From positions 1-55,356 of the forward strand of contig CAZWXQ010000007.1 in NCBI GenBank assembly GCA_964637955.1: a stretch of DNA of 55,356 nucleotides. Direction: 5' to 3'. A program made the translations under genes and the position numbers. The stretch is from an uncultured Gammaproteobacteria bacterium. Lineage in GTDB: Bacteria > Patescibacteriota > Microgenomatia > Levybacterales > UBA12049. Every line of letters begins with the position of its first letter. The stretch's first letter is position 1. The notes beneath the pieces were generated by a model that searched no databases, was not told where the DNA came from, and worked only from the letters and a program-made list of their open reading frames with translations. Below are positions 6,601-48,273 of this stretch, in pieces.

Positions 6601-6732
6601 AAAGTCTGCTCTCGTATTAATTTGTTGTTTTTGCTGAGTAGAAAAAATTATAAATGGGAGTGTTATGAGTAGAATGATAAAGGAGACTAAAGCTATTTTT
6701 TTATATTTAGTATTATGCCACAGTTTCCTCAT
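3607..6732 (-). CDS. polysaccharide lyase family 8-like enzyme (hyaluronate/chondroitin/xanthan lyase type) with PT linker, Ig-like module and dockerin-like C-terminus
   Basis: 1041 aa. N-terminal anchor, a PL8-type core including the DGSFIQHEIHPYNMWYGSIF motif region, and beta-sandwich C-domains. This is followed by [17 protein letters not shown] and GDVNNDNILSILDFKLISDCY...[21 protein letters not shown]. Confidence 0.7.
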   Translation of the reverse strand: MRKLWHNTKYKKIALVSFIILLITLPFIIFSTQQKQQINTRADFSGNDYAKIRESWFNYETGGNYDTSNPELNGLIAAKVTKIASDGRSIKSQLITSSDRKYLFSDKNGPNGGDWVADTYERIEKMALAYSTKGAITDPNEKEAFYIAIKDSLIWLNNNWYNSETCKGNVFNSPKSIENQCSTNLIYEVGIPRSLTTNIILIYDRLSQDPDFTEFITKNMNAVERFYPNPRSNSSNEFYKGNGVHDTAGNLAMTTVPLLLRAGISNDPIALDEAIYNYNQKLMQYTNSSDGIYSDGSFIQHEIHPYNMWYGSIFFRNVVEISRVLSQSNLASANTDKLYRYYKDSFQPFMFNESPMDMVMGRLISYPRTEVTNSDLPLISSLAGFISSLSGNQYKDLGSEILNKTNKQIIRDSIFTIIETYKLIKDPNLISVNNYEITKLFPRIDKLVSLKNDYAFGISMSSGRIGNYESINGDNKKGWYTSDGMIYFYNKTDPGQYNDYFWATVDKTKLPGTTIDETIKLSASNTYLSENFDSKLNNYMSPKLYAGGSTLNTYVAVGMNFKSKLNVFAKKSYFIFDNELVALGSNISATNNQNVQTIIENRKIKNDNSNIFQIDNKSISSPTNILNPKWAFLEGTGGYYFPISGNISAQKQSRSGNWKQIKNTASDLTTPIRNYAQILINHGVNPTNEKYAYVFLPNSSQSTTSSYAQKPDISILAQNSAAHAVKENKLNITAANFFGSGNAGDISSSGNSSIIVDEEPESINISIADPTQENDSVNITINKNATDVISKDPQINVTSTSPIKFSVNMKNSLGNSFKISFSKNNTTTPIYTLTPTKTPTPSPNPTKTPTNTQTPSPIPNTTKLKLNSVKLHGIGSGGDATNNKSGGNLNPARISRSVTLELNNSSGSLIMTAQGNINYSPNTGDFSGIITLPSSIDTGNYLIKIKSPQFLKKQYNGIINVTKGSITNLPAIILVSGDVNNDNILSILDFKLISDCYSDFLPAKNCSDQNKKNAADISDDGKVDQDDYNLYLRELSIKSGD

Positions 6733-10308: not shown

Positions 10309-11202
10309 ATGAAGAAAATTAGAAAGGCAGTTATTCCTTCAGCCGGATTTGGAACCCGTTTTTTGCCTCAGACAAAAGCAATGCCTAAAGAAATGCTTCC
10401 TCTCGTAGACAAGCCCGTCATTCAATTTGTAGTAGAAGAATTAGTTGATGCTGGAATTACTGACATAATTCTTGTTACCGGATACCATAAAAGAACGATT
10501 GAGGATCACTTTGATCAAGCAAGTAAAGATTTGGTAGAAAATCTTAAAGCTGGAGGAGAGAAAAAGGCACCTCTTCTTGAGCAAATAGAAAATATATCAA
10601 AGATGGCCAATTTCGTTTATGTGCGTCAAAAAGGTCCATATGGAAACGGAACTCCACTTATGAATGTCAGGCATCTTATTGGAGACGAGCCTTTTATTTA
10701 TACTTTTTCTGACGATTTTATAGTTGCTGATCCATCTAGATTCAAGCAAATGATCGAACTTTATGAGAGATATGACTCATCTGTTATGGGAAGTATTCGA
10801 GCTAAAACAGATGAGGATTACTCCCGATATGGATTTGCTGGAGGAGATATGCTTGAGGATGGATCAATAGATGTGAAAACATTAATTGAAAAGCCCGGAA
10901 AAGAAAATGCGCCTTCAGATTTAGCTACTGTATCAGGTTCTATATTTACACCAGATATTTTTGATTATTTAGATCAAGTTATGGAAAATTTATCTGAAGG
11001 TCAAGAATTTTATTATAATGATGCATTAAAACTTATGCTTGCAGATGGTAAAAGAATAATTGCTACTGAAATTAGAGGCGGAAAATATTATGATACTGGA
11101 AATAAGCTCGAATATATGAAGACTATTGTAGATCTCGCATTGGAGCATCCTGAAGTTAAGGATCAATTTAGGGAGTATCTTAAAAATCTAAACTTAAATT
11201 AA
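10309..11202 (+). CDS. galU: UTP--glucose-1-phosphate uridylyltransferase
   Basis: N-terminal KAVIPSAGFGTRFLPQTKAMPKEMLPLVDKPVIQ and overall length are typical of GalU. Confidence 0.9.
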   Translation: MKKIRKAVIPSAGFGTRFLPQTKAMPKEMLPLVDKPVIQFVVEELVDAGITDIILVTGYHKRTIEDHFDQASKDLVENLKAGGEKKAPLLEQIENISKMANFVYVRQKGPYGNGTPLMNVRHLIGDEPFIYTFSDDFIVADPSRFKQMIELYERYDSSVMGSIRAKTDEDYSRYGFAGGDMLEDGSIDVKTLIEKPGKENAPSDLATVSGSIFTPDIFDYLDQVMENLSEGQEFYYNDALKLMLADGKRIIATEIRGGKYYDTGNKLEYMKTIVDLALEHPEVKDQFREYLKNLNLN

Positions 11203-14200
11203 TTAGGCCTTGTAACTCGTTCATTTATCATTCTTCCTCTTTCCCATCTTCTTTCTTGTAATTGTTTTGTTGGTAGGTCATCTAGTTTTTCTAATTCCAT
11301 TTTAATCCAGTCACGTAGAAAGCGCACTGAAACTCTAGGGTCTTTGTGAGCTCCACCTTTTCCTTCAGGAATAATTGCATCAATTTGTCCTGTTTCCATT
11401 CTCCCTTGCGATGTCGCATCATGTAATTGATTAAGAAATTCTTCCAAATTATTTTCATCTTTCCATTGCCCAGTCATAATCCACCACTGGACAACCGGAG
11501 CGGAAACAAAGCTTAGAGCATTCTCAAAGTCTGCAGCTGCGTCTGCTGGGTGAATAATAGTATGTCCACCACCGCTGCCATCTATCCCAGTATTTATGCT
11601 CAAAACAGGGTAGGGATAGAGATCTGTTAATTTTATTATTTCAGCAATGTTATTTGATTGTCCTGCTGATTCAGCTTCAGGAGAAGGGTCGGCGCCCTTA
11701 GTATCTCCCAAAAGAATAAGGGGTAATTTTCTTTTTTCAGCAAGTTCCATGATGTGTTTCATGTAAACCCAGTCTTTGGGTTTTTGAGGATCATATACCT
11801 TTTTTTCATTTCCATCACTATTTTTTACTCTTTGTGTCTGATGACCTATTACGCACATTGGTCGACCCTCGATAGAAGTTATAGCTGCAACAACTGTTGG
11901 GTATTGATCAACTCCATCAACGCGTATTGAATTGCTTAAGAAAAAAGCATCATCAAATAGTTCAGAGCGAGTATCTATTAAGTCAGCTGTTGTAGGTCTA
12001 TCCGGATGCTGAATGATTTCAAGACGTTTCATTATGGGTAGATTTTCAGGTCTTGGAGGTAAAATAATTTCTCCTTTTGAAGGTTTATGACTATCCCAAA
12101 GTGTTCCTCCTACTTTATTTCTGATCCATGCAACGAAAGTTTGTCCTGGTTGATCAGGTTTAGTTGTTCTGTCAAATGCTTCTCTCTGTCCAATTGTTTC
12201 TCTAGGTGCAAAAACTATATTAGGATCTGTAATTGTCGCTGGATCATTTAAGATGTGCATTAAATGAGCAATTTTTTCAGAAGCAACTTCAAGATTTGGA
12301 GTAACAATATCAACTGTTCTATCCCAGAAGCAACTTATGGAGGTATGTGTTCCAGGAGGTAGGACTTGATATGCGTCACTTGCTCTATCAGATTGTGGAT
12401 CAAGTCCAAGAGATTTTGCTACAATAAAAGGACCTGTAAAGCCCTTTCTCGTATTTGCTTCAACTATAATTTTTAAATCAGCAACTCCGGCAAAGCTTGC
12501 AGGAACTCCTCCATATACTCCTCCAACGTCAACATTTATATGCATAGAAGGGGGATACTTGTTAAGTGCCTGGATAGTGGTTCTCATTTGGTGGAGAGCT
12601 ATTGTGTTTTGTTGTTGCTCAGCGCCTCCTGAGCTAACTATCGTAACTAGTGGTAACCCTTCTGAATTAGCAAGTTTACATGCATCTTCAAAAGCAGTGC
12701 CTTCATCGATTCCTAGTTGTCCATCAAGGCGATAGAGTATGTATCTAATTCCGTCACGTTCATAAAATCCATATTCAGCATAGGATTCACTGTCTCTTCT
12801 TGCAGCCATTTCTTGCCTGTACTGACTATATGATATAGGTTCATCAGAATTTCTTCTTGGAACTTTTACGTCCTGAGGAAGAAGTTCAATTGCGAGCTTT
12901 CTAGAAGGAGGAAGTACAGTAAAGACTCCGCCATCAATAAATCTTTCTAATCCTCTTGATTTTTCTTTAAGTTTATTATTCCACCACCTTTCTATAAAAG
13001 TTGTTGTCATGGTGGAATTGGTAAATTCTGGGGTAGCTAATAACTCAATTAATAGCTCTCTGTTGCTGGATACTCCAGTGAGCTCTAATTTTATCAAGAA
13101 CTCAATTAATTTGTTTCTCGCATCCTCTCTATTTTCCCCATGAGCAATTGCTTTAAGTACTGTTGGATCATACCAAGAAGAAATTTCGTCCCCCTCAGAA
13201 ACACCTGCTTCTACGCGTATGCCTGGAGTTTCTGGAACTCGAAGCATATCAAGTTTTCCAGGGCTTAATTCAAATCCTTTTCTCGGGTTCTCAGCATAAA
13301 CACGAGCTTCTATAGTGTGACCATTGGGGGAAATGTCTTTTTGGGCTAATTTTAGTTTTCTTCCTTCAGCAATGTCTATCATCAGCCCTACTATGTCGAC
13401 TCCTGTTTGCTCTTCGGTTACAGGATGTTCGACCTGAATTCGAGGATTTATTTCCATAAAATACCAAGCAGGTTCATTTGTCTTGCCTTGTCTATCTGTA
13501 TCCACGATAAATTCCCAAGTGCCAACTCCTCTATAATCAATATCTTTTGCAAAGTTAATAGCAGCTTTTTGAATAGTACGAGCAAGCTTTGGACTTATAT
13601 TTGGAGAAGGAGATTCCTCAATGATTTTCTGGTGACGGCGTTGCATGGTGCAATCCCTTTCGCCAAGTGAAACAACATTGCCATAGTTATCCGCTGCAAT
13701 TTGAACTTCAACATGAACAGCATTTGCTATCAAGTGTTCCATATAAACTTCCCTGTTGCCGTCTCTCATGCGAAGTTGACGATATGCGCTTTCAAGTTCT
13801 GCTTTGTCTTTGACCACTAAATTGCCCATGCCTCCACCAGTATCTGGATCTTTAAGCATGACTGGATAAGTTAAAGCCTCAGCGCTCTTGGATGCGTCTC
13901 GAAATGTAGCGAGATTACCAGTTCCTTCTAAAACCGGAATGTGAGATAAGGGTCCAATTTTTACCTTTTTTGCGGTTTCGCGGGCTTTTATTTTATTTCC
14001 TGCTAAATCCATAACAGGGGAAGGGGGAGCAAGTACTCTTATTTTTGCTTCCTCACATTTTCTTATGAAGTCTGCATTTTCTGAAAGAAATCCATATCCT
14101 AAAAAGATAGCGTCACACTGTCGAAATGTTGCTTCTTCCAGAATTTTATCAGGATCAGAATAAGACTCTTGTGCAGAAGTTCCTCCTATTGGAGCGAGTT

Positions 14201-14393
14201 CCCATCCCTGTTGATCTGCAATTCTAGTAATCAGTGCATCTGAATCTTCGAGAGAATAAGGAATTACAGCAGAAATATTTCTTTCTTGACAGGCGCGAGC
14301 TGCTCTTACTGCTATTTCTCCTCGATTGGCAATAAAAAGTTTCTGTATTGGAGTAATAACTTCGGCTTGATGTTCATGTTCTATAGTTGGCAT
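11199..14393 (-). CDS. fused biotin carboxylase (ATP-grasp) + carboxyltransferase (AccD-like and AccA-like halves) protein, no carrier domain
   Basis: 1064 aa. The N-terminal part (KLFIANRGEIAVRAARA...EMNPRIQVEHPVTE) is biotin carboxylase. The middle part (SSGGAEQQQNTIALHQM...GFTGPFIV) is AccD-like. The C-terminal part (LLGDTKGADPSPEAESAGQSNNIAE...GSGGGH) is AccA-like. Confidence 0.8.
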   Translation of the reverse strand: MPTIEHEHQAEVITPIQKLFIANRGEIAVRAARACQERNISAVIPYSLEDSDALITRIADQQGWELAPIGGTSAQESYSDPDKILEEATFRQCDAIFLGYGFLSENADFIRKCEEAKIRVLAPPSPVMDLAGNKIKARETAKKVKIGPLSHIPVLEGTGNLATFRDASKSAEALTYPVMLKDPDTGGGMGNLVVKDKAELESAYRQLRMRDGNREVYMEHLIANAVHVEVQIAADNYGNVVSLGERDCTMQRRHQKIIEESPSPNISPKLARTIQKAAINFAKDIDYRGVGTWEFIVDTDRQGKTNEPAWYFMEINPRIQVEHPVTEEQTGVDIVGLMIDIAEGRKLKLAQKDISPNGHTIEARVYAENPRKGFELSPGKLDMLRVPETPGIRVEAGVSEGDEISSWYDPTVLKAIAHGENREDARNKLIEFLIKLELTGVSSNRELLIELLATPEFTNSTMTTTFIERWWNNKLKEKSRGLERFIDGGVFTVLPPSRKLAIELLPQDVKVPRRNSDEPISYSQYRQEMAARRDSESYAEYGFYERDGIRYILYRLDGQLGIDEGTAFEDACKLANSEGLPLVTIVSSGGAEQQQNTIALHQMRTTIQALNKYPPSMHINVDVGGVYGGVPASFAGVADLKIIVEANTRKGFTGPFIVAKSLGLDPQSDRASDAYQVLPPGTHTSISCFWDRTVDIVTPNLEVASEKIAHLMHILNDPATITDPNIVFAPRETIGQREAFDRTTKPDQPGQTFVAWIRNKVGGTLWDSHKPSKGEIILPPRPENLPIMKRLEIIQHPDRPTTADLIDTRSELFDDAFFLSNSIRVDGVDQYPTVVAAITSIEGRPMCVIGHQTQRVKNSDGNEKKVYDPQKPKDWVYMKHIMELAEKRKLPLILLGDTKGADPSPEAESAGQSNNIAEIIKLTDLYPYPVLSINTGIDGSGGGHTIIHPADAAADFENALSFVSAPVVQWWIMTGQWKDENNLEEFLNQLHDATSQGRMETGQIDAIIPEGKGGAHKDPRVSVRFLRDWIKMELEKLDDLPTKQLQERRWERGRMINERVTRPN

Positions 14394-14398
14394 ATATA

Positions 14399-14947
14399 TT
14401 ATGATCTTTCAGTTTTTTCTACGTAACAAAGCACAGTTCCTGGCTCTACATCTTGTCCATCAGTTGCCGCATATCCAATAAAAGTTGCACCTTGAGGAAA
14501 TTTATCTCTTGGAAGTCTTATCATAAATCTTGTACCTTTTCCCTTTGTTGCTACTCCCAGCGGAGCATCAGCTGCAATCCAATCATCTGCTCCTACCATC
14601 GGATTTCCGTCAGTTGGATTTATCGTAGAAAATTTTCCGTTATAACCTGCCATAAGAGGAGTGCCGCTACGTAGCTCAGCGCCTTTATCCCAGTCCCCAG
14701 TAAGTTCGATTCTGAGTTCGCGGGTAGCTCCATCTCTTGAGAGATTAACACTTAACACTTGAGGATTTTCTCCAAGGGACGTAACTTGCAAAGAAGCTGA
14801 AACATCAGTTCCACTTTCGACTAGACCAACGACTGCATCTATTAAAGGTTTTCCAAAAATAGGAGTAGCTGCCTGAAGTCGTTCCGCAGGGGTTCCAACT
14901 TGTGGGTAAATTTCACTTCGACTTGCTCGATTTTCTCTTTCTGCCAT
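14399..14947 (-). CDS. possible atypical biotin/lipoyl-carrier-like protein
   Basis: 182 aa. The C-terminal ~85 aa (TPLMAGYNGKF...PLGVATKGKGTRFMIRLP...GATFIGYAATDGQDVEPGTVLCYVEK) resemble a biotinyl-domain hairpin. ATKGKG replaces the canonical (E)AMKM. It sits between birA and the carboxylase. Confidence 0.35.
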   Translation of the reverse strand: MAERENRASRSEIYPQVGTPAERLQAATPIFGKPLIDAVVGLVESGTDVSASLQVTSLGENPQVLSVNLSRDGATRELRIELTGDWDKGAELRSGTPLMAGYNGKFSTINPTDGNPMVGADDWIAADAPLGVATKGKGTRFMIRLPRDKFPQGATFIGYAATDGQDVEPGTVLCYVEKTERS

Positions 14948-15790
14948 TTAAATAATCCTCACTTTCATATTTGTGTTAAATTGATTAAATACGACTAGGC
15001 CTTTTGAGGTTTCTACTCTAAGTCCAAGGCCAATTTTCGCTTCAATGGCTCTACCAATTGTCGTATTTTCACCGTGAGTCACTTCAACATCTCTTCCTAA
15101 AACAGAAGATAATTTTTGCCAAAGCTCGTCGTATGTTTCTCGAGCTGCCGGATTTGTCTGTATAATTTCTGCATCAGGCCCAATATCTGCGATATTACTT
15201 AAAATTCCTAAAACCAAATTTTTCCTTGAAACTGGGTTTGTCTGCAAAATATCAAGGGATACTGCTCCATAATCAGAAGGAGGGAGTTCAGATTTTTCTT
15301 GATGCACATTAATGCCAATTCCTACATTTGCACCCAAAAATTTATTTTGATCATCATAGATAGCTCTAGTTAAGATTCCTCCAAGTTTTTTATCTTCATA
15401 AACGATGTCGTTGGGCCACTTAAGTTGTATTGGCAGGCCACTTAACTCTCTTAATGTCTGACATGCGTTTAGGGCTACGAGATCTGCATAGGTCGTTAGA
15501 CTGCTTTCGTCTGGGTTCAGTCGAATACTCATTAAAACTGATTTTCCCGGACTGTCGTGCCATGCTCGTCCTTCGCGCCCAACTCCATTAGTTTGATGAT
15601 CAGTAAGTGCAACAATGTTAGAAGCATCTCCACTAAGAGCATGTTCATCAACGGTAGACATAGTAGTAGGAGTTTGAGGAGAAAAAATCAGCTTAAAGCC
15701 AAGACGTTCTATTTCTTGAGTTAATTCAAGAACATCATAAGCGTCAATTAATAAAGGAGCAGGAGCTAATTCAAATGGGCTTGTAGACAT
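14948..15790 (-). CDS. birA: biotin--[acetyl-CoA-carboxylase] ligase, class I (no N-terminal HTH)
   Basis: GVGREGRAW (a GRGRxGRxW-type loop) and KWPNDI motifs. 280 aa. Confidence 0.85.
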   Translation of the reverse strand: MSTSPFELAPAPLLIDAYDVLELTQEIERLGFKLIFSPQTPTTMSTVDEHALSGDASNIVALTDHQTNGVGREGRAWHDSPGKSVLMSIRLNPDESSLTTYADLVALNACQTLRELSGLPIQLKWPNDIVYEDKKLGGILTRAIYDDQNKFLGANVGIGINVHQEKSELPPSDYGAVSLDILQTNPVSRKNLVLGILSNIADIGPDAEIIQTNPAARETYDELWQKLSSVLGRDVEVTHGENTTIGRAIEAKIGLGLRVETSKGLVVFNQFNTNMKVRII

Positions 15791-15800
15791 AAAGTGCCTT

Positions 15801-16529
15801 GTGGGGCATTTTATATCAAAAAAAGGAACTAATCAAGGCTATTTAAGCTTCTTTGCGCTTGGTATAATAATAATTGTGAAGCGGGCTTCCTTATTACAAC
15901 TTTCATTATTCATGTTTTTTCTCTTTTTTGTGTTTACTTTTTTTGTTTACTTAAATATAAGTGCACTTGCAACGCTTGATTACAAAACTACTGAATTATC
16001 TCAAAAACTAATTCCAAATTTATTCATAATGCCATTTTCTTTTTTCAGTGTTTTAGGATCTGCTGAATTTACAGGAATCTTTTTGCTTATATTATTATTT
16101 CTGTTTCTTAGGACCAAGAAGTTGGTAATAGTTGTTTTCATGTTCGTTTTTATGGGACTTGTTGAAATCTTTGGTAAAACTGTAATAAATCAGCCAGGTC
16201 CACCATTATATTTTCATAAAACTAGTATGCTTTTAGGTTTGCCTTCAAGTGGCGTTTCTGCAGATTTTTTCGCTTATCCATCAGGACATAGTGCACGTAC
16301 TGCATTTGTATCAGGCATTTTAATTCTTGTGATTTGGTTAAATTCCAGGCTTTCAAGAGAAATTAAAATGATTCTGATAGGCGGAGTTTTAATTTTTGAT
16401 TTAATTATGTTTTCAAGTAGAGTTTATTTGGGCGAGCATTGGGCAAGCGATGTTTTGGGAGGATTATTATTAGGTTTTTCTATGGCACTACTAACCTCAT
16501 TTTTCCTTATCAAGGAGTCATCTAAGTAA
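15801..16529 (+). CDS. PAP2-family membrane phosphatase
   Basis: Multi-TM protein with the PSGHSARTAF and SRVYLGEHWASDV acid-phosphatase motifs. The GTG start in the track is uncertain. Confidence 0.7.
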   Translation: MGHFISKKGTNQGYLSFFALGIIIIVKRASLLQLSLFMFFLFFVFTFFVYLNISALATLDYKTTELSQKLIPNLFIMPFSFFSVLGSAEFTGIFLLILLFLFLRTKKLVIVVFMFVFMGLVEIFGKTVINQPGPPLYFHKTSMLLGLPSSGVSADFFAYPSGHSARTAFVSGILILVIWLNSRLSREIKMILIGGVLIFDLIMFSSRVYLGEHWASDVLGGLLLGFSMALLTSFFLIKESSK

Positions 16530-16550
16530 TTTGAAATAACTTGGCAATAC

Positions 16551-16568
16551 CTTTGGTCATGACCAAAA
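16551..16568 (+). terminator. 18-nt perfect palindrome CTTTGGTCATGACCAAAG 22 nt after the PAP2 gene stop
   Basis: Read directly. There is no clear U-tract, so the terminator call is weak. Confidence 0.25.
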
Positions 16569-16652
16569 GTATAAGTAGCTCTAGAACTCGTTACGGCATC
16601 TCTCGTTAAGAAGTTACTAATAAGAAAAACTAAAACTCATCGCCTCTGGCAA

Positions 16653-16664
16653 TTGGTTAATAGA
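16653..16664 (+). repeat. left copy of the direct repeat flanking the high-GC island (TTGGTTA-ATAGA, core GTTAATAGA 16656-16664)
   Basis: The same 9-mer GTTAATAGA recurs at 19253-19261. TTGGTTA also recurs at 19246-19252. Confidence 0.35.
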
Positions 16665-16670
16665 TTTTTA

Positions 16671-16741
16671 AGCAAGAAAAGCCCCCTCTATTATGAATTA
16701 TCCCGCGAAACGCGGACCCGCCTGTTGGCGGGAGAGGGGGC
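16671..16741 (-). terminator. branched GC-rich terminator after lemA
   Basis: The outer stem is GCCCCCTCT (16681-16689) / AGAGGGGGC (16733-16741). It encloses hairpins CCGCG-AAA-CGCGG (16703-16715) and CCCGCC-TGTT-GGCGGG (16717-16732). On the minus strand it is followed by TTTTCTT. All read directly. Confidence 0.5.
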
Positions 16742-16774
16742 ACTAAGTCGGCTACATGGGTCTAGGCACGTTTC

Positions 16775-17356
16775 CTAGGGTGCCGGAGAGACTCCGACTC
16801 TGCTGGGCGGCAAGGTCGCCCGAGGGTTTTCGTCTTCCCCGAGAACGTGCTCGTCCGGCCAGAAGAGGCCGATGGGCACGAAGAGCACGCGGCTTCGGTT
16901 GTACGCGGTCTGCGCGTTGATCAGCTCACCCCTGGCATAGGTGATGCGGTTGACCGAGCCTGCGGTCTCATCGAAGAGTCCACGCTGGATCTCCGTGAGC
17001 CCGATGTTCGGGTAGTTCTCCACGAAGGAGCGGAGTGCGAAGAAGGCCTGCGCGGCGTTCTCCACGTTGCCAGGATCGGATGTGTCGCCTTGCGACGCTG
17101 TGTCGAAGGCACTTCGAGCGCTGGCGATCTCCTCGATGAGATCTCGCTGGAGATCGACGGTCACGTTGAACTGCTGCTCAAGCCTGGGCAGTAGTTCGCT
17201 TGCGCGTTCGATCTGGTTCCAGATCTCAGCGGTTTTGCCGCGGATAGTCTCTTGGCCACCAGCGAGGGATGCGTATCCCACGACCTGGTAGGCACCGAAG
17301 AGCCCCGCGATGACGAGTACGATGAGGGAGATCATCCCACATCCACGCATGATCAC
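16775..17356 (-). CDS. lemA: LemA-family protein
   Basis: 193 aa. N-terminal TM helix, then a helical region with ...VENYPNIGLTEIQRGLFDETAGSVNRITYARGELINAQTAYNRSRVLFVP..., resembling the LemA consensus. GTG start. Located upstream of the terminator and downstream of two TPM genes, the usual neighbourhood. Confidence 0.65.
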   Translation of the reverse strand: MIMRGCGMISLIVLVIAGLFGAYQVVGYASLAGGQETIRGKTAEIWNQIERASELLPRLEQQFNVTVDLQRDLIEEIASARSAFDTASQGDTSDPGNVENAAQAFFALRSFVENYPNIGLTEIQRGLFDETAGSVNRITYARGELINAQTAYNRSRVLFVPIGLFWPDEHVLGEDENPRATLPPSRVGVSPAP

Positions 17357-17376
17357 CTTGTGATCCCTTTCTGGCG

Positions 17377-18111
17377 TTAGCCGCCTGAACCGCCGCCGCC
17401 GGAGCTTCCTCCGCCGCCGAATGAACCACCACCCGAGCTCGAGCTAGATGAACTGCCCGAGTAGTAAGACCCCCCGTATCCAGTAGCGCCTCTTAGAGCA
17501 CCAGCTAGGACTACGAGGCCCAAGAAGATGAGTACCCATACCCACCATGGCCAGCCCGAGTCGGGAGATTTGAGGTCTCTGAACTCATCGGCTTCCGGTT
17601 GGGTGAGGAAGTCAGCGAACTTCGTAGCAAGTTGGACGAGTCCGTCTTGCCACTTTCCGTCCTTCCGTAGAGGGTTGAAGAAGTTCTCCCGAAAAAGGGT
17701 GAACTTTGAATCGGGAAGAAGTCCTTCCATGCCTTTGCCGGTAGCGACGAAGATGTAGGGCTTGGGGTCGTTCTTGGATCCCGGACGGTCGAGAAGTACC
17801 ATGATCGTGAGACCATTGTCCTTTTCGGCCGAGCCGATACCGTTCTCATTGGCGACTTTGGTCGCGAACTGAGCCGGATCTGAGTTGATGTCCTTGAAGA
17901 ACACGCCTGCGAGCTGGAAGCCCAGAGTGCCAATCCTATCGGACTGTGCCCTCAATGCCTCCAGGGTTTCGCCGGGAACAGTGCCTGTGGTATCCACCCA
18001 GCCTCGATCACTCTTCGTGATTTGAGGAATGGAGGGATCCGCGGACCCTGAGCAGCCAGCGAGCAGTAGGGTCAGGAAGATGATTACGCCGAAGAGATTC
18101 CGGAGCCTCAT
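17377..18111 (-). CDS. TPM-domain (YgcG-like) lipoprotein with TM helix and Gly/Ser-rich tail
   Basis: Lipobox LLLAGCSG. TPM-like core GIGSAEKDNGLTIMVLLDR...YIFVATGKGMEGLLPDS...FNPLRKDGKWQDGL. TM helix and a GGGSFGGGGSSGGGGSGG tail. Confidence 0.75.
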   Translation of the reverse strand: MRLRNLFGVIIFLTLLLAGCSGSADPSIPQITKSDRGWVDTTGTVPGETLEALRAQSDRIGTLGFQLAGVFFKDINSDPAQFATKVANENGIGSAEKDNGLTIMVLLDRPGSKNDPKPYIFVATGKGMEGLLPDSKFTLFRENFFNPLRKDGKWQDGLVQLATKFADFLTQPEADEFRDLKSPDSGWPWWVWVLIFLGLVVLAGALRGATGYGGSYYSGSSSSSSSGGGSFGGGGSSGGGGSGG

Positions 18112-18119
18112 CTTACTGG

Positions 18120-19154
18120 TTATCCACCCGAGCCTGAGCCGCCGAAGTCTCCACCTCCGCCGAAGGATTCTCCTCCGCCGATGTTGAAGCCTCCAGAGCT
18201 GCCGCTGTCGAATCCTGAGCCGCCGAAGCTGCTCCCGAAAGAATTGCCGCTGTCATCGTCATGATGATGCGAGCTTCTGTGCGGTGGGTCGTCGTCACGG
18301 TCTTCTGGCTCGTCTCTGCGAGTCGAGTGCCCGGCTGAAGCCAGAGTCGCTGCCGTTCCCAGATATGTGAGACCATGGGAAGGGTACGGATCTGGCTGGG
18401 GCGTGTACGACGTTCGCGTGGACGAACTGCTGATTGGGTAGGACACGGGGTCGAAGTAGGGATCCTGCTTCTGGGACTTCCTTGCAAGGACGACCAAGAA
18501 GATCACGACTGCCGCTACGATCGCCCCGAAGATGAGGATCACCCACATGAGGGCGTTCCCATCATTGGTGCTTTGGGTCGGTTGGGGGTTGGGGCTCTGG
18601 GATTCTGGGTTGGACAAGTCCACCATGAAGTTTGCCAGTTCCCTGGAAAGGCTTATGAGGCCTTCTTCCCACCGTCCCTGGGCGCGAAGGGGGTTGAAGT
18701 ACTTCTCCCGGAAGCGGGTCACCGCTGAGTCAGGGAGGTCTCCTTCGAGTCCTCGGCCTGGCGCCACAAAGATGTACGGCTTGTTGCCGTCCGAGCCTTT
18801 GCGGTCCAGGAGGACCAGGATCATGAGACCGTTGTCCTTTTCGGCCGAGCCGATCCCGTTCACGTTACCTACGTCTGAGGTGAACTGGCTGGGGTCGGAT
18901 TCGATGTCCGAAAAGAACACGCCGGCCAATTGATAGCCGCCCGCATGAACCCTGTCGGATTCCTTGCGAAGAGCTTCCATGGTTGCGGCGGGAACTGTTT
19001 CCGTCGTATCCACCCATCCGCGGTCACTGACCGTGATGTGGGGGATGGCGGGGTCTGCTGCTTGTGCGGTGATTCCGACAAGCGACAGCAGGATCACTGC
19101 CACGAAGGGCAAGATCCTTACGAGCCGTGTGGTCACGATGTCCTTTCTGTGCAC
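18120..19154 (-). CDS. TPM-domain (YgcG-like) protein, paralog of the preceding gene, longer Pro/Ser/Gly-rich tail
   Basis: GIGSAEKDNGLMILVLLDR...YIFVAPGRGLEGDLPDS...FNPLRAQGRWEEGL aligns with the neighbour over ~150 aa. Signal peptide and a TM helix. GTG start. Confidence 0.75.
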   Translation of the reverse strand: MHRKDIVTTRLVRILPFVAVILLSLVGITAQAADPAIPHITVSDRGWVDTTETVPAATMEALRKESDRVHAGGYQLAGVFFSDIESDPSQFTSDVGNVNGIGSAEKDNGLMILVLLDRKGSDGNKPYIFVAPGRGLEGDLPDSAVTRFREKYFNPLRAQGRWEEGLISLSRELANFMVDLSNPESQSPNPQPTQSTNDGNALMWVILIFGAIVAAVVIFLVVLARKSQKQDPYFDPVSYPISSSSTRTSYTPQPDPYPSHGLTYLGTAATLASAGHSTRRDEPEDRDDDPPHRSSHHHDDDSGNSFGSSFGGSGFDSGSSGGFNIGGGESFGGGGDFGGSGSGG

Positions 19155-19245
19155 TGCGTGTGCACGCTATGTGTTGTAGCCGATGTTAAAGAGCTGCTAT
19201 GAACCCTCCTTTCGACACGCTAGTGTCAGTTGTCTGACTGTGTCT

Positions 19246-19261
19246 TTGGTTAGTTAATAGA
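19246..19261 (+). repeat. right copy of the direct repeat flanking the high-GC island (TTGGTTAGTTAATAGA)
   Basis: Contains TTGGTTA and GTTAATAGA, matching 16653-16664. Confidence 0.35.
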
Positions 19262-19410
19262 CCGGGGAATTATAGCAGAAATGAGCCTGATAGTCAAAAC
19301 TATAAGTCTTAATTTTTTAAAAATAATGGATTTTATTCGCTTCAAATATTTATACGTAGGTCTTACCATATTTTTGCATAGATTAGATTATTAACTGTTA
19401 AATTAAGCAA

Positions 19411-19638
19411 ATGGACTTTCAAAATATTTTTTACTTCGTGGGCACGATATTTATGGTAACGATGATAGCTCTTATGATTGGTATCGGGATTCTTCTTTTC
19501 AGAATGAGGGAAAATTTAGCCCTATTATCGAAGCTAACTCATAAGCCCGTGGATACGGTTACAGAGCTTGGTGCGGGTATAGCAGAAGGTGTCGCACTAA
19601 AACTTAAAGAATGGACAACTAAAAAAGCCTCCGATTAA
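19411..19638 (+). CDS. small membrane protein (75 aa), hypothetical
   Basis: One N-terminal TM helix (IFYFVGTIFMVTMIALMIGIGILLF). No motif recognised. Confidence 0.4.
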   Translation: MDFQNIFYFVGTIFMVTMIALMIGIGILLFRMRENLALLSKLTHKPVDTVTELGAGIAEGVALKLKEWTTKKASD

Positions 19639-19666
19639 GGAAGCTTTTTATAGAGCTAAAATTTCT

Positions 19667-19984
19667 TTATTTTTTTGAACCCTTTTTATCTAGTTTGTCT
19701 GCTGCGACACTAGAAACTTGATTTATATTTTTCCTAACATCTTCCTTCATTCCTGAAGTTTCTAAATTTACATTATTTAGCACATCACCTGCTGTATCAA
19801 TTGCTTTATCTTTAACTACGGCAAGGTTTTCACGAGTTTTTTGGTTTGCGAGCATTAATCCTGCTACACCACCGATTGCGGCTCCAGTCATAGCGCCTAC
19901 TATTTCAGGAGAGATCATACTTACTCCACCTTTTTTGCCTGTAGTAGAAGTTACCTTAGATTTAGATTTTGTTGTCTTAGCCAT
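19667..19984 (-). CDS. YtxH-like glycine-zipper membrane protein
   Basis: 105 aa. GAMTGAAIGGVAGLMLANQKTRENL followed by a helical tail, resembling the YtxH family. Confidence 0.4.
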   Translation of the reverse strand: MAKTTKSKSKVTSTTGKKGGVSMISPEIVGAMTGAAIGGVAGLMLANQKTRENLAVVKDKAIDTAGDVLNNVNLETSGMKEDVRKNINQVSSVAADKLDKKGSKK

Positions 19985-20086
19985 TAATTTTCACCTCCTT
20001 TCTTATTGCTAAAAAAAGTATAGATTTTCTTAGCATTAATCTAGCAAAAGGTAGGTAAGAGTTCGGAAAGAAAATTTTTATTTTAT

Positions 20087-20368
20087 TTAAGAGTTGTCTT
20101 TTAATTCAACAGGGCTCACGTAAGGAAATATGCCTTTTTGTAACTCGCTAGATCGTAGCTCGAGTTCTCTTAATAATTCTTCTTGTGCAAGCTGGGATGA
20201 AATTATCGGCAATTTTTCCTGCGCCCATAGAGGTATTGGAAAATCTAGAGGTAAATGTTCATAATAAGGCGTAAAAGCGGGTTGATCGGGGCTGGAAACG
20301 GGTTCTAAAATTATGTCTAAAAAATGCTGAAACCCAGTAATATAGGCTGCATTAAGGGTTAAAAGCAA
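20087..20368 (-). CDS. hypothetical protein (93 aa)
   Basis: ORF track only. Confidence 0.3.
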   Translation of the reverse strand: MLLTLNAAYITGFQHFLDIILEPVSSPDQPAFTPYYEHLPLDFPIPLWAQEKLPIISSQLAQEELLRELELRSSELQKGIFPYVSPVELKDNS

Positions 20369-20541
20369 AGGAATAACCGTTCTTCAAGGTAGATGGTCTA
20401 TGAGCTTGAGTAGTCTCAGGCGATCTTACAAGCAAAATATAACAAAATAAATTTTTACAATCAATTAGCAATTTTAAATTTCCACTTAGCAATTGACAAG
20501 ATAAATTTACAGTAGTATATTCATCAGGCTGCTCAAAAAAA

Positions 20542-21540
20542 ATGGAAAGAAGAGGACCATCATTACTCGAGAGCATGCCCCAAAGACCTTCGTATGAGAT
20601 TGTTGCGGGAACTTCAAATCCCGAACTCGCTAAAAGTATAGGTGAAATACTTCATAGAACAGTTGATGGGTCAGCAGGAGAGTTCCTAAATCATGAGACT
20701 AAAGTTCAAATTACCCCAAATCTTCGAAAAAGAGATGTATTTGTAATCAATTCCATGCAGGATCCTGCCAATAATTATTTTATGGAGCTATTGACTATGG
20801 TTCAGGCTGCGAAGCTGGCATCTGCTGCAGAAGTCACAGCTGTTATTCCTTATTATGGATATGGAAGACAGGATAAAAAAGACGCACCGCACGTTCCTAT
20901 TACTGCAGATTTAGTGGCTAAAGCTCTTGTAAATGCAGGAGCAGACAGAATCTTCACTCTTGATATACATGCAGAGCAAACGATGGGCTCCATAGCACCT
21001 AGACCCTGGGATAATCTCTATGGCAGTCGAGTTTTACTTCCTGCCGTTAGCGCATTAGGGCTCGATAATCCAGTTGTGGCTTCAGCTGATGCCGGGGGGG
21101 TAAAAAAAGCTGAAAAATTTTCACTCTTGCTTGATGGATCCGGCGAAGTAGTTATGGTACATAAAAGAAGAAGCGGGGCAGATGTAAAAGCTAAAGCTGT
21201 TGTAGGAGATGTGGAAGGCAGGGATGTAATAATGGTTGATGATATGATAGATACGGCAGGAACTCTTAGAGAGGCGTCCCAACTCATAAAAGCACATGGG
21301 GCAAATAGAATTATTGCTTTAGCAACACATGGTCAGTTCACTGGTCCGGCTCTTGATAGAATTTCAGATTCACCAATCGATAGAGTTCTTGTAACGGACA
21401 CTATTCGCCAATCAGATGAGGTTAGAAATAATCCTAAAATTCAGATTGTAACTGTAGCTGCGCTCATAGCAGAGGCAATTAAAAGAATTCACAGAGGTGG
21501 ATCATTAAGTGCGTTAATTCCAATGCCTCCAAAGAGTTAG
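20542..21540 (+). CDS. prs: ribose-phosphate pyrophosphokinase
   Basis: YYGYGRQDKK, DIHAEQ and VDDMIDTAGT motifs. The true start may be ATG 20575. TTGACA-N17-TATATT lies upstream at ~20494-20522. Confidence 0.9.
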   Translation: MERRGPSLLESMPQRPSYEIVAGTSNPELAKSIGEILHRTVDGSAGEFLNHETKVQITPNLRKRDVFVINSMQDPANNYFMELLTMVQAAKLASAAEVTAVIPYYGYGRQDKKDAPHVPITADLVAKALVNAGADRIFTLDIHAEQTMGSIAPRPWDNLYGSRVLLPAVSALGLDNPVVASADAGGVKKAEKFSLLLDGSGEVVMVHKRRSGADVKAKAVVGDVEGRDVIMVDDMIDTAGTLREASQLIKAHGANRIIALATHGQFTGPALDRISDSPIDRVLVTDTIRQSDEVRNNPKIQIVTVAALIAEAIKRIHRGGSLSALIPMPPKS

Positions 21541-21920
21541 ATTTTTGGAGTTATAAAGTGAACTACGAAAACCTCACCTTTATAATTAAATGGAGTCATA
21601 ATTAATTCAACTTCAACTTCGGATCCACCTTTAGTTTTAATATTGACTGATAGGAAAGAGGCAGTAAGTTCTTCGCTGGCTTTTCCATAAGCTTCAATTA
21701 CAGTATTTTGATCACCTTCTACGACATCATCTATCGGACTTTCGACTTCAACCCATTTATCGATTGATTCGTAACCAAGTAGATCTGCGAAATTTTGATT
21801 GCAGATTTTATGTGTGTCATCTAGATAAATATAAATAGCTTGAGGGGAATCAGAAAGGATAGGTTCAAATATTTCTGCAATTTCTTTTATGAGATGTTCA
21901 TGGTGTTCATCGTGTGCCAT
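21537..21920 (-). CDS. small PAS-like domain protein
   Basis: 127 aa. SPQAIYIYLDDTHKICNQNFADLLGYES... resembles a PAS core. Confidence 0.35.
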   Translation of the reverse strand: MAHDEHHEHLIKEIAEIFEPILSDSPQAIYIYLDDTHKICNQNFADLLGYESIDKWVEVESPIDDVVEGDQNTVIEAYGKASEELTASFLSVNIKTKGGSEVEVELIMTPFNYKGEVFVVHFITPKI

Positions 21921-21959
21921 TTTTTAATATTACAAAAATAAATATGATTTGACAATCGC

Positions 21960-22700
21960 TTAAAAAATAGAATCAACGTCATTGTTTGAAGAAGAAAGAA
22001 TGCCCTGATGATAAGCTAAATTTACTCCGTTTATTTTATCTTGAATCATGAATGGGTGATTCCCAAAATATCTATCTCCAAAATCTCCCAAGCCTGGCAC
22101 AATATAATTTTTATCATTTAATCTTTCATCTACGGCAGTAGTAGTTATTTTAATTTCTGGATAAAGCTCATTAATTCTTACTATTCCTTCAGGTGCGGAA
22201 ACTAGGGAGTAGATTTGCATTTGATTAAATTTTGCTCCCATATTTTTTAATATTTCAATTGCCATACTTGCCGATCCGCCTGTCGCAAGCATGGGGTCAG
22301 GAATAATTATTTTATTGAATTTTTTAAGATCTAATTTTTTTAACCCATTATAATTTAAGCTTGGAAGCGAAGTTTCATGGCTTCTTTTTATGTCAAGTAG
22401 ACCCAGTGTAGCATCTGGCATTGAAGATTTAATTCCTTCTGCTGCAGGTAACCCAGATCTCAGAATTCCCACGAGTAAAACATTTGCTGAATCACTTATT
22501 TCATAATTCTTGAATGAATCATCTACGGGCGTAGGTATTTGCACATTTATTTTCGGAAGATCATTTAATATTTCTTCACCTACTATTTTAAATATTCTAT
22601 CAGCATGAAATTTAAAATCGTTTATATTTGTATTCTTATTTCTTAATATTGCAAAAGAATCAATTATTGCTTGAGTTTCAAATAATTTTACTTTATACAT
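21960..22700 (-). CDS. upp: uracil phosphoribosyltransferase
   Basis: PRPP loop IIPDPMLATGGS and C-terminal GLGDFGDRYFG. Confidence 0.85.
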   Translation of the reverse strand: MYKVKLFETQAIIDSFAILRNKNTNINDFKFHADRIFKIVGEEILNDLPKINVQIPTPVDDSFKNYEISDSANVLLVGILRSGLPAAEGIKSSMPDATLGLLDIKRSHETSLPSLNYNGLKKLDLKKFNKIIIPDPMLATGGSASMAIEILKNMGAKFNQMQIYSLVSAPEGIVRINELYPEIKITTTAVDERLNDKNYIVPGLGDFGDRYFGNHPFMIQDKINGVNLAYHQGILSSSNNDVDSIF

Positions 22701-22757
22701 TTTTAAAGCCTGAATAATCCTAAGAGAATGTTATATGTTTTCCGATAAATAGTAAAG

Positions 22758-23777
22758 TTATTTTATGTTTTTATAATAATAATTAAATCTATTTTTTATT
22801 TCTACAGCACACATGATAAAAATTATAGATAGCGTTGTGTATATGATAGTGTAATATTCATTTCTAAAATTAACTAAGTTCTTTGACGGATGGAATAAAA
22901 AGAAAACTTTACTTAAATAGATAAACACGAAATAATGCCATATGAAAAGTGGCATAGTGTTTTTACCTAGATATTCCAGCACTTTATTCTTATTAATATA
23001 TTTGCTTATAAAAATAGTAGCTAGGATTCCAGAAATAGCAGCTATATAAAAGTAGAAATAATTATTAAGTCTGTTTAGTCTTAAATCAACTTGCACACCA
23101 AAGTTATCAAAATTAAGATTGGCAAAGAAAAAAGTTGTGATTATAAAAATTGCCATTAAGAAAATTGAATACTTATTGAATGTTTGATTAATTCTTTCCG
23201 GGAGAAAATTCCAAAGATATCCCATCCCAAAAAATACAATTCCAGTTAAAACCGTTTCAAAACCAAAGGGGAATTTTATGTAAGAAAAGTAATGAGAAAT
23301 TAAAAAACCTAGTATAGAAAAAATAATTAGACTTAGGATTAAAGATTTTATACTTAATTTTGATAAGAACCAGAAGATCTGTTTAGTTAAAAATAGACAT
23401 GGTAAAAACCAAAGAACAGTGTTTATCGCCAAATATCCATGATTTGCATTTCCATAAAATATCCCAAATATTTGCTTAGAGATGTAGTAAATCGTTTGAT
23501 CTTGGGAAGGTAATATTATAAACCATAAAATGAGACTTGCGAACGCGAAAATAAAATAGGGAATCAAAATTCTCTTAATATCTTTTCTTAAAGAATCTTT
23601 ATATGTTTCATTTGACCTGGTATGAAAAACTAGTCCGGAAAGAAAAAAGAAGAGTGGCATGTGGAATGAATAGATCAAGTATCTATAACCCTCAGAGCCA
23701 AGTGTATGACCATAAATAACCAAAATAATTCCTATGCCGCGAGCAACATCAATCCATGAAAATCGTTCTCTTATCAT
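22758..23777 (-). CDS. acyltransferase family 3 membrane protein
   Basis: About 10 TM segments. The N-terminal WIDVARGIGIILVIYGH is typical of Acyl_transf_3. Confidence 0.7.
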   Translation of the reverse strand: MIRERFSWIDVARGIGIILVIYGHTLGSEGYRYLIYSFHMPLFFFLSGLVFHTRSNETYKDSLRKDIKRILIPYFIFAFASLILWFIILPSQDQTIYYISKQIFGIFYGNANHGYLAINTVLWFLPCLFLTKQIFWFLSKLSIKSLILSLIIFSILGFLISHYFSYIKFPFGFETVLTGIVFFGMGYLWNFLPERINQTFNKYSIFLMAIFIITTFFFANLNFDNFGVQVDLRLNRLNNYFYFYIAAISGILATIFISKYINKNKVLEYLGKNTMPLFIWHYFVFIYLSKVFFLFHPSKNLVNFRNEYYTIIYTTLSIIFIMCAVEIKNRFNYYYKNIK

Positions 23778-23830
23778 AAATTTATTGTAGCAATGTTTGA
23801 GTAAGTAAAATGAGCGAAGAGAGTATTACA

Positions 23831-24562
23831 TTATGGCTTTAATTGTTTAGGTTCATCCCACCATGTATTCGAACTTCTTTGAGATGAACCTCTAACTTCT
23901 TGAATTAGTAATCCTCCTTTTGCTCTGTCTATTAGTCTCATAGTCTCGCTTGTATCTCCAGCAAACGATAGACCTGATTTTAGAAAACTTTTTGGATCCT
24001 GTGTGTTGCTGGTTATAAAAAGTCTTCCGCCTTTGTTATGCATTAAGGTAATAGCTTTTCGTACGAAAGCTGATCCACTACCATACTCTGAATTCCAATC
24101 GTCAATAATCAGCACGTCAAATTCTTGCCTCAGAATTTCATTGCCAAGTCCTTTAAGTTCAGCGAGATTTATATACATCGATTTTTTACCTTCTGCTATA
24201 GCTTTCTTTGCAAAAGCAACACTTAGATGAGTTTTTCCAACTCCTGGATCTCCATGAACAAACATTCCTGCCAGTTTTCCATCAGCTGTCTGTAAAAGTC
24301 TTTCCATCATTCTCGTAAGGTCTGTCTGAGATTGATTTTGTGGAGAATAATTATCCCATCGTGAAGAAGCATTTTCCAAAGGTAAATCAGGATGAAGTTG
24401 GGAGAATGTTATATCAACTCGCATTTTACTTAATTGATCTGCTGAAAATTTTCCATCCGGTCCTTTTTCGTAGGAATTAATTATGGAATCAAACTTAACC
24501 TCAGGAAGTCCAGTTGTTGCTGGAGTATATTCAAATACTGAAATTGGTGCCCCTTCATTCAT
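23831..24562 (-). CDS. DnaC/IstB-like P-loop ATPase (array gene 1)
   Basis: Walker A HGDPGVGKTHL and Walker B VLIIDDW. There is no adjacent transposase or helicase. Confidence 0.55.
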   Translation of the reverse strand: MNEGAPISVFEYTPATTGLPEVKFDSIINSYEKGPDGKFSADQLSKMRVDITFSQLHPDLPLENASSRWDNYSPQNQSQTDLTRMMERLLQTADGKLAGMFVHGDPGVGKTHLSVAFAKKAIAEGKKSMYINLAELKGLGNEILRQEFDVLIIDDWNSEYGSGSAFVRKAITLMHNKGGRLFITSNTQDPKSFLKSGLSFAGDTSETMRLIDRAKGGLLIQEVRGSSQRSSNTWWDEPKQLKP

Positions 24563-24570
24563 AGTGGGAA

Positions 24571-24599
24571 ATTATATCAAAAAGGGGAGAGTATATCAA
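24571..24599 (-). promoter_or_regulatory. promoter TTGATA-N17-TATAAT, 8 nt before ATG 24562
   Basis: Minus strand reads TTGATATACTCTCCCCTTTTTGATATAATTTCCCACTATG. Confidence 0.55.
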
Positions 24600-24604
24600 A
24601 ATGT

Positions 24605-24638
24605 ATCAGCAGGTCTAAAGTAACTACTCTGTTAGGAA
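24605..24638 (-). repeat. conserved intergenic box, copy A (divergent)
   Basis: Plus strand ATCAGCAGGTCTAAAGTAACTACTCTGTTAGGAA. It overlaps the stop codon of the 121-aa gene. Confidence 0.6.
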
Positions 24639-24997
24639 TTATTATCAGTACTAGATGCAAATTCTAGTTGCTCAGTTGAGTCAAACCATCTTACTACTGT
24701 TCTAACTGTTGCTTCGTGATCAATTAGACCTCTAACTAAGTTTTCCAATTCTAGATCTAATTCTTCTCGCTCAGCAAAGCTTACACCAATTGAATCTTCA
24801 GACACATATGGTTCATAATCAGAATAGTTTCCATTTCTCTCTACAACGACTGCACCAACTCTTCCAATAGCAGGTCCAATAAGTGCTTTAACTAAATCAC
24901 CTCGTTGAAAAATAGTAGGCGTAGGTGTTTCTACTCTTCTTATAGGAGTGGGATAAAAACTATCTGCTGACACAAATCTCAGAACTTCTTCATTCAT
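24632..24997 (-). CDS. hypothetical protein (121 aa, array gene 2)
   Basis: ORF track. Begins MNEEV. It has its own promoter. Confidence 0.5.
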   Translation of the reverse strand: MNEEVLRFVSADSFYPTPIRRVETPTPTIFQRGDLVKALIGPAIGRVGAVVVERNGNYSDYEPYVSEDSIGVSFAEREELDLELENLVRGLIDHEATVRTVVRWFDSTEQLEFASSTDNNS

Positions 24998-48261: not shown

Positions 48262-48273
48262 TTTATTAGACCT

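Follow-up and report, generated by a model that had tools for sequence, protein, structure and literature searches.

How did a block of GC-rich DNA come to lie in the chromosome of an AT-rich bacterium, and is it real sequence? The question is raised by the window analyzed here, a stretch of 55,356 nucleotides from metagenome contig CAZWXQ010000007.1 (assembly GCA_964637955.1). In it, a GC-rich island of about 2.6 kb carries a cassette of three genes, one of the LemA family and two encoding TPM domains. We conclude that this cassette is very likely a horizontally acquired, expression-ready operon, real and fairly recent, in the genome of a Candidatus Levybacteria-like bacterium of the Microgenomates group within the candidate phyla radiation (CPR, Patescibacteria).

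Composition, genes and junctions of the cassette

The first-pass annotation of this DNA singled out positions 16665-19252 as a segment in which base composition jumps abruptly. A 200-nt sliding profile bears this out, with GC climbing from 0.25-0.36 to 0.54-0.66 at about 16.7 kb and dropping again at about 19.2 kb. A two-change-point maximum-likelihood fit places the borders at 16702 and 19167, with a GC of 0.594 between them. All other 2.55-kb windows have a mean GC of 0.355 (standard deviation 0.023, maximum 0.408), which puts the island about 10 standard deviations away, and no 1-kb bin outside the island region exceeds 0.43 in the 55-kb stretch. The GC-rich block is therefore as first described, but the background is less extreme than the ~30% GC then given, the rest of the window being 35.5% GC.

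The island contains exactly three genes, all on the minus strand:

16775 to 17356, minus strand: LemA-family gene, 191-193 aa; one transmembrane helix at the N terminus, then the LemA domain; GC at third codon positions (GC3) 0.77
17377 to 18111, minus strand: TPM-B, 244 aa; lipoprotein-type signal (LLLAGC), TPM domain, transmembrane helix, Gly/Ser tail; GC3 0.64
18120 to 19154, minus strand: TPM-A, 344 aa from the GTG at 19154; signal peptide, TPM domain, transmembrane helix, low-complexity tail; GC3 0.70

The LemA protein matches the family profile PF04011 over residues 42-156 (38.3 bits against a cut-off of 26.2, E = 1.4e-9) and the 'lemA protein' of PDB 2ETD (E = 1.3e-12). Hydropathy indicates one hydrophobic segment, residues 1-29, ahead of the domain. 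TPM-B and TPM-A both match PF04536, with 49.2 bits (E = 6.6e-13) and 46.0 bits (E = 6.6e-12) against a cut-off of 22.1, and have PDB 7TBR (E = 2e-5) and 2KW7 as structural relatives. NCBIfam models gave no match for the cassette proteins. By hydropathy, TPM-B is hydrophobic at residues 1-25 and 185-212, and in TPM-A hydrophobic segments flank the domain at both ends. Together with reading of the sequence, this gives both TPM proteins the YgcG-type order of export signal, TPM domain, transmembrane helix and Gly-rich tail. The predicted export signals are an LAGC lipobox in TPM-B and an AQA signal-peptidase site in TPM-A. The tails are of GGGS type, and the long tail of TPM-A is rich in Ser, Pro, Asp, His and Gly.

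TPM-A and TPM-B share 50% identity over 218 aa (E = 4e-72) and are thus paralogs. With the Pfam matches, this confirms the earlier description of a LemA-like gene beside two alignable TPM paralogs with Gly/Ser-rich tails. The GTG starts claimed for the genes apply to TPM-A, which has alternative GTG starts at 19136 and 19103, but not to TPM-B, which starts with ATG; LemA may use GTG 17356 or ATG 17350. Because the intergenic gaps measure 8 nt and ~20-26 nt, we consider the three genes to be an operon.

The compositional shift extends to synonymous sites. GC3 of the 43 other genes in the window averages 0.23 (standard deviation 0.036, maximum 0.38), leaving the cassette genes ~13 standard deviations out. 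Since all three genes are shifted at third codon positions, the high GC is a synonymous-site shift and not a by-product of proteins rich in Gly, Ala and Pro. In base composition and in codon usage the cassette is unlike its host, as horizontal islands are.

The first-pass annotation left open a double-junction assembly artefact. Logan assembles each sequencing run separately, and does so with another assembler than was used for the deposited contig (sources NCBI and Logan). A 13,697-bp Logan contig from SRR14271336 is 100% identical to window positions 11250-24946 and spans both junctions, and a 1,641-bp contig from SRR14271332 is 100% identical to positions 18296-19936 and spans the right junction. 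The joins were therefore recovered from two read sets and by a second assembler. These data indicate that the island is real sequence and not an assembly error.

The host chromosome and the empty site in a sister genome

The flanks of the island carry housekeeping genes, including those for ribosomal proteins L11, L1 and L28, NusG, MreB, MreC, a penicillin-binding protein (PBP), Fmt and tRNAs. For topoisomerase I (TopA; gene at 52317-54347), identity is 69-74% to proteins that bear the name Candidatus Levybacteria or Microgenomates, and 90% to a protein on a 443,648-bp JGI contig. Given these flanks and the TopA identities, the island lies in the chromosome of a Levybacteria-like CPR bacterium. 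Judged by its sequence, the host belongs to the Microgenomates group, close to Candidatus Levybacteria.

The JGI contig (3300050184, Ga0502760_0000024; GC 35%) shows ~80-83% nucleotide identity to the window in conserved genes and serves as the sister genome. Its syntenic locus, L027, was reached through P0305, a member of the L11 90% cluster, and a Logan copy is available as L028; the 90% clusters of ten flank proteins contained no sister ortholog. Gene order at the sister locus is A2M, tRNA-Trp, several genes, Acyl_transf_3, a 128-aa gene, a 391-aa gene, YtxH, PAP2 (on the opposite strand), NTP-transferase, SecE, NusG, L11 and L1. The amino-acid identities between window and sister orthologs are:

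L11: 96%
NTP-transferase: 90%
SecE: 87%
L1: 86%
NusG: 84%
Acyl_transf_3: 77%
128-aa protein: 76%
YtxH: 57%
PAP2: 50.5%

In the sister, YtxH ends 30 bp from the end of PAP2. The two genes form a converging pair with one common hairpin, and neither L027 nor L028 has a TPM or LemA gene between them. Thus the flanking synteny is kept and the cassette is absent, which answers the earlier proposal to look for an empty site in related genomes. A cassette at the same locus in the sister, which the first-pass annotation named as the sign of ancient acquisition, was looked for as well, and the site is empty. None of the subfamily's matches in the LemA and TPM searches falls on the 443,648-bp contig.

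Comparison of L027 with the window by blastn, tblastx and tblastn defined a variable segment around the cassette:

11199 to 19620, no strand: segment variable against the sister; 8.4 kb in the window, with ACC (acetyl-CoA-carboxylase-like, fused), a 182-aa gene, BPL (biotin ligase), PAP2, the cassette and a 75-aa open reading frame (ORF); 0.65 kb in the sister, with a 50%-identical PAP2 only
19411 to 19638, plus strand: 75-aa membrane ORF, adjoining the cassette and ending within the YtxH hairpin; GC3 0.38, the highest of the non-island genes
19621 to 19649, no strand: hairpin terminator of YtxH and the converging gene; right edge of sister homology (L027 6930-6980 against window 19680-19620)

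Homology between window and sister stops directly past this hairpin. Within the variable segment, only 16702-19167 is compositionally foreign; ACC, the 182-aa gene, BPL and PAP2 have a host-like GC3 of 0.21-0.25. The 75-aa ORF has no family match and is seen only in identical copies of the window, the sister having PAP2 at that place. Since several gene differences fall between the hairpin and NTP-transferase, the locus is a hotspot of gene turnover.

We made three further observations at this locus. The hairpin arm (window 19621-19649; L027 6935-6978) encodes the C-terminal residues KKASD in both the sister PAP2 and the unrelated 75-aa ORF of the window. The genes at 11199-15790, namely a fused biotin-carboxylase/carboxyltransferase gene (1064 aa), the 182-aa gene and a biotin ligase gene, have native composition, are absent from the syntenic locus of the sister and, for a CPR genome, amount to an unusual metabolic module. 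The window retains no more than a 49-aa remnant (20237-20383, in the region 20087-20576) of the 391-aa gene found in the sister.

The sister also allows a rough estimate of when the cassette was gained. At fourfold-degenerate sites of nine orthologs, window and sister differ with p = 0.454, a Jukes-Cantor distance of 0.70 that is an underestimate at this base bias. Under two-state relaxation toward the host GC3 of ~0.23, about half of the GC3 excess with which a cassette began would be left if it had been resident since the split. To show the 0.47 seen today, the cassette would have had to start at a GC3 above 1, which is impossible. This rough calculation suggests that the gain is younger than the split from the sister. 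Import from outside, as first proposed, is thus supported by the foreign composition, the confirmed junctions and the empty sister site, whereas "very recent" holds only relative to the split from this ~82%-identity sister.

Control elements and related cassettes

The closest relative with known context is one organism present on 15 contigs from JGI, ENA and Logan (L001-L006), and its cassette has the same TPM-TPM-LemA order. Both L001 TPM copies are closer to TPM-B of the window than to TPM-A. Comparison with this relative and with a further cassette, L020, points to conserved elements on either side of the genes:

16670 to 16755, minus strand: conserved 3' element; motif GTAGCCGAyTTAGT, then a branched intrinsic terminator and U-tract
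19155 to 19268, minus strand: conserved 5' leader; aligns with the L001 leader and contains TCGGCTACA
19269 to 19335, minus strand: AT-rich sigma-70-type promoter and conserved upstream block, from a promoter scan and alignment with L001-L006

The promoter scan predicts a near-consensus promoter at 19269-19297, with TTGACT, a 17-nt spacer and a TG-extended TATAAT (11 of 12 matches). The alignment with L001-L006 covers this promoter, ~35 nt upstream of it, the sequence TCyCCGGTCTATTAA that follows the -10 box and a large part of the leader. The conserved block, AGACTTATAG..TTGAC..17..TATAATTCyCCGGTCTATTAA, has a single occurrence in the window. At the other end, GTAGCCGAyTTAGTGCCCCCTCT downstream of LemA is common to the window, L001 and L020 and is followed by two hairpins, AGAGGGGGC and a U-tract; its core, GTAGCCGAyTTAGT, is confined to cassettes of this subgroup. 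The outer stem of the terminator, GCCCCCTCT/AGAGGGGGC, encloses the two hairpins. The window, L001 and L020 are all predicted to adopt a common three-way-junction fold (z-scores -3.8, -4.6 and -5.2; 0 of 200 shuffles as good), and the inner hairpins vary by compensatory changes (CCCGCC/GGCGGG against TCACC/GGTGA; CCGCG/CGCGG against TCGCA/TGCGA). Fold prediction and conservation in three cassettes bear out the GC-rich branched terminator with a U-tract that had been noticed at first. Rfam gave no match for leader or terminator, at gathering thresholds or at E <= 1.

Promoter and terminator are located precisely at the composition boundaries. Because promoter, leader and terminator are all conserved, the transferred or inherited unit runs from promoter to terminator, ~16670-19335 (~2.67 kb). 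The segment first marked, 16665-19252, therefore stands as the GC-rich block but falls short of the functional unit, which takes in the AT-rich promoter and upstream block to ~19335.

The leader sequence TCGGCTACA (within 19155-19268) is perfectly complementary to TGTAGCCGA just ahead of the terminator (within 16733-16755, minus strand). L001 has a 9-nt complement shifted by two or three bases, GGCTACATT/AATGTAGCC (L001 8093-8177 and 10662-10686). Shuffled sequences reached 9-nt complementarity in 24/3000 and 37/3000 trials (~1%). The 5' end of the mRNA may pair here with the 3' end, or the two motifs may be an inverted repeat that flanks the genes; with two sequences this is a lead only. Motifs of the cassette suited to nucleotide-level search are TATAATTCYCCGGTCTATTA and GTAGCCGAYTTAGTGCCCCCTCT.

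We then considered how the cassette is distributed. The LemA search returned six other clusters only, at 57-68% identity, and the TPM search a tight subfamily of ~45 clusters (E 1e-68 to 1e-26), separated by a gap from generic TPM proteins (E above 1e-20). TPM lies directly upstream of LemA on one strand in 12 of 12 loci examined; the arrangement holds in the window, L001-L006, L008-L013, L020, L023, L025 and L026. Across 12 genomes the GC of the cassette is 0.49-0.61, and that of the host flanks is 0.36-0.62. In L001-L006 it is 0.52 against flanks of 0.40-0.44, with a GC3 of 0.49-0.54 against ~0.30-0.45. Cassette GC also exceeds flank GC at the following loci:

L010: cassette GC 0.61, flank GC 0.45
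L012: cassette GC 0.57, flank GC 0.36-0.41
L023: cassette GC 0.56, flank GC 0.45
L013 (labelled Saccharibacteria): cassette GC 0.49, flank GC 0.41

More distant relatives have host-like composition in genomes of 52-61% GC. L008 and L009 are Ktedonobacter-like (their SecD cluster includes OLC60660.1), and their cassette GC3 of 0.62 equals that of the genome. The cassettes of L025, from a host genome of 0.61 GC, and L026, whose upstream flanking gene has a GC3 of 0.80, lie slightly below their flanks. In L011, the cassette (GC 0.51) is close to its flanks (0.54), with a GC3 a little lower than in the genes next to it.

In a neighbour-joining LemA tree, built without support values, the window, L020, P0003-P0007 and L001 form one clade, next to L010 and a high-GC group, then L012 and L013. 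Low-GC and high-GC hosts are interspersed in this tree, the taxa of most hosts being unassigned. These results point to a subfamily that is native to mid- to high-GC bacteria, Ktedonobacteria-like Chloroflexota among them, and that has moved on more than one occasion into low-GC lineages, of which several are CPR.

Two side observations concern these relatives. L012 (CAZNVI010000005.1) belongs to a metagenome-assembled genome deposited as 'uncultured Gammaproteobacteria', with flanks of 31-36% GC; the label may be wrong, and the nearest tree relative of its LemA is that of the genome labelled Saccharibacteria. Other GC-elevated patches occur at L010 2001-3500 (GC 0.57-0.71) and at L001 5336-5692 and 13300-16500 (an ORF with GC3 0.96; a run of small genes with GC3 0.53-0.62), which suggests that foreign DNA is common in both genomes.

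Origin and likely function of the cassette

Under the reading we prefer, the ~2.67-kb unit would have been inserted into the variable intergenic hotspot between PAP2 and YtxH after the split from the sister species. Its source would have had a GC3 of at least 0.7, and the unit would hardly have ameliorated since. Transcription is predicted to start at the near-consensus sigma-70 promoter, to pass through the conserved leader and the three tightly spaced genes, and to stop at the three-way-junction terminator. The route of transfer may have been indirect, since the closest relatives, at least one of them a related CPR bacterium, have the AT-rich promoter in common with the window.

Several points weigh against this reading. 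Mobility signatures were looked for and not found: the cassette lacks an integrase or other mobility genes, its flanks show no direct repeats, and there is no tRNA target, the nearest tRNA lying at a distance of 9 kb. The databases searched, with a genome scan and a metagenome scan that yielded 4 loci each (two of the latter already known), held no donor above 68% LemA identity, and the best TPM match, ~70% over 62% of the query, is the L001 cassette. The nearest relatives with known context are in low- to mid-GC genomes, not high-GC ones, and the shared promoter is AT-rich. The empty site of the sister could in principle be a deletion, as the locus also differs in ACC-BPL and in the genes for uracil phosphoribosyltransferase (UPRT) and phosphoribosyl pyrophosphate (PRPP) synthase. 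Finally, the function proposed below is drawn entirely from family membership.

Other kinds of element were considered and rejected. For carriage by a phage or plasmid, there was no relative in IMG/VR or phage records, and plasmid matches reached at most 29% identity. A transposon or integron-like insertion would not account for a unit with its own promoter that lacks flanking direct repeats, terminal repeats and an integrase. PADLOC gave no match for a defence system.

The alternative that survives best concerns the donor: an unusually high-GC member of the Patescibacteria, already carrying the three-gene unit with its promoter and terminator, could have passed it on, rather than a non-CPR host. 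No locus of known context other than L001-L006, a CPR relative, has the three-gene layout together with promoter, leader and terminator in common with the window. L020 has the terminator in common, and the LemA proteins of the subgroup are one clade. However, at a GC3 of 0.70 the window cassette is above either relative (~0.5-0.55), so neither resembles the donor, and CPR genomes of ~60% GC are uncommon. We judge such a transfer between CPR bacteria to be unlikely, though it deserves to be kept in view.

A resident cassette, inherited vertically within Microgenomates, lost in the sister and held at high GC by selection or biased gene conversion, is a much poorer candidate. The genome of L001 is a CPR relative of the window (tRNAs 92% identical; M50 59%, L28 56%, Fmt 40%, Def 32%), and the two cassettes, at 57% for LemA and 66% for TPM-B, are as similar as or more similar than these housekeeping proteins (32-59%). 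Vertical inheritance would fit this identity, the conserved non-coding control regions and a cassette GC of 0.49-0.61 irrespective of that of the host. Against it, the cassettes of window and L001 occupy different loci, the syntenic site of the sister is empty and high-GC hosts are nested among low-GC hosts in the LemA tree. Moreover, we know of no force that would hold a GC3 of 0.70 in a genome of GC3 0.23 over a neutral divergence from the sister of at least 0.7 per site. Taken together, these data make an ancient resident very improbable.

That the assembly fused a piece of some high-GC genome to a CPR contig by mistake would suit the sharp switch of composition at both ends and the origin of the window in a metagenome-assembled genome, but with both junctions at 100% in the SRR14271336 contig and the right one in that of SRR14271332, homologous cassettes with this AT-rich promoter and GC-rich genes on 15 contigs, and promoter and terminator exactly on the composition boundaries, such a chimera is scarcely credible.

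Regarding function, TPM domains have been treated as phosphatases/nucleotidases or as chaperone-like factors, the latter being proposed to assist the assembly of membrane complexes (PMC11237479). In Flavobacterium columnare, membrane stress raises the expression of LemA together with that of a TPM gene (PMC13236525). From what is known of these families, the two TPM proteins would be sent out of the cytoplasm and tethered on the outer side of the membrane, TPM-B as a lipoprotein and TPM-A via its signal peptide. Each would cross the membrane through its C-terminal transmembrane helix and have its Gly/Ser-rich tail in the cytoplasm. The single-pass LemA protein would join them in a membrane-anchored module, likely to assist the assembly or maintenance of membrane or envelope complexes. 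The cassette is therefore a candidate envelope or membrane-complex maintenance module.

The cassette resembles known systems in part. Like LemA (PF04011) and TPM/YgcG (PF04536) neighbourhoods in general, for which Thermotoga LemA (PDB 2ETD) and, on the TPM side, 7TBR and 2KW7 stand as structural representatives, it has both domains, TPM upstream of LemA and a YgcG-like architecture. Unlike them, it has a duplicated TPM gene, forms a tight separate subfamily and comes with a conserved promoter, leader and branched terminator of its own. TLP18.3 and Psb32 of photosystem II, the mycobacterial CIII-CIV subunit AscF and Bacillus subtilis YdjH beside PspA likewise have a TPM domain that is tethered to the membrane outside the cytoplasm. 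In contrast to these assembly or repair factors, the cassette has no photosystem, respiratory supercomplex or PspA gene nearby; its partner is LemA and its activity is a prediction. Atypical composition, sharp borders, absence in a close relative and a variable hotspot are shared with classical genomic islands, yet the cassette measures only 2.6 kb and lacks an integrase, a tRNA target, flanking direct repeats and plasmid or phage relatives.

Saccharibacteria have gained genes from diverse sources (McLean et al. 2020, PMC7427843), and the present case is alike in that a reduced-genome CPR bacterium gained an accessory function from an outside lineage and that independent gains in different CPR groups are suggested. 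It differs in its nucleotide-level record: a GC3 of 0.70 against 0.23, an empty site in a sister and recurrence in several low-GC genomes. Neither the pairing of LemA with TPM genes nor horizontal gain by members of the CPR (PMC7427843) is a novelty. What is new is a clean, un-ameliorated island with an empty sister site, the recurrence of the cassette in low-GC genomes and its conserved control elements.

The cassette matters mostly as a clean example and not as a new kind of system. With both junctions verified and the sister site empty, it documents recent gene gain by a CPR bacterium at the nucleotide level. Its elevated GC in several low-GC genomes suggests recurrent, probably adaptive, import into reduced genomes. 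Should a donor be found at high identity, such islands could help to identify which partners uncultured CPR bacteria have. The pair of LemA and TPM genes is itself common, and the conserved control elements give experimental handles on it. A broader scenario would join these points: a self-contained "portable operon", repeatedly captured by ultra-small CPR bacteria from higher-GC neighbours, possibly their hosts, for a needed membrane-maintenance function, with the GGCTACA/TGTAGCC pairing of mRNA ends as a built-in, host-independent device for stability or control. We regard this scenario as speculative and rather doubtful; if true, such cassettes could trace CPR symbionts to their donor or host lineages.

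Elsewhere in the window, further gene differences from the sister were seen. The genes for PRPP synthase and UPRT (20542-21540 and 21960-22700) are missing at this place in the sister. A 408-aa gene that lies between mreB and mreC (42321-43547) is absent in the sister. After the PBP gene, the window has a 513-aa and a 584-aa gene (46720-50078), and the sister has a DMFA2_C-domain gene instead. Large polysaccharide-degrading and alpha-2-macroglobulin-like proteins are encoded in both the window (3607-6732, 28682-31666) and the sister (L027 11272-20423). With a PL8 lyase, and with GH26 and Pel9A-like proteins in the sister, they make up a notable extracellular glycan toolkit for a CPR bacterium.

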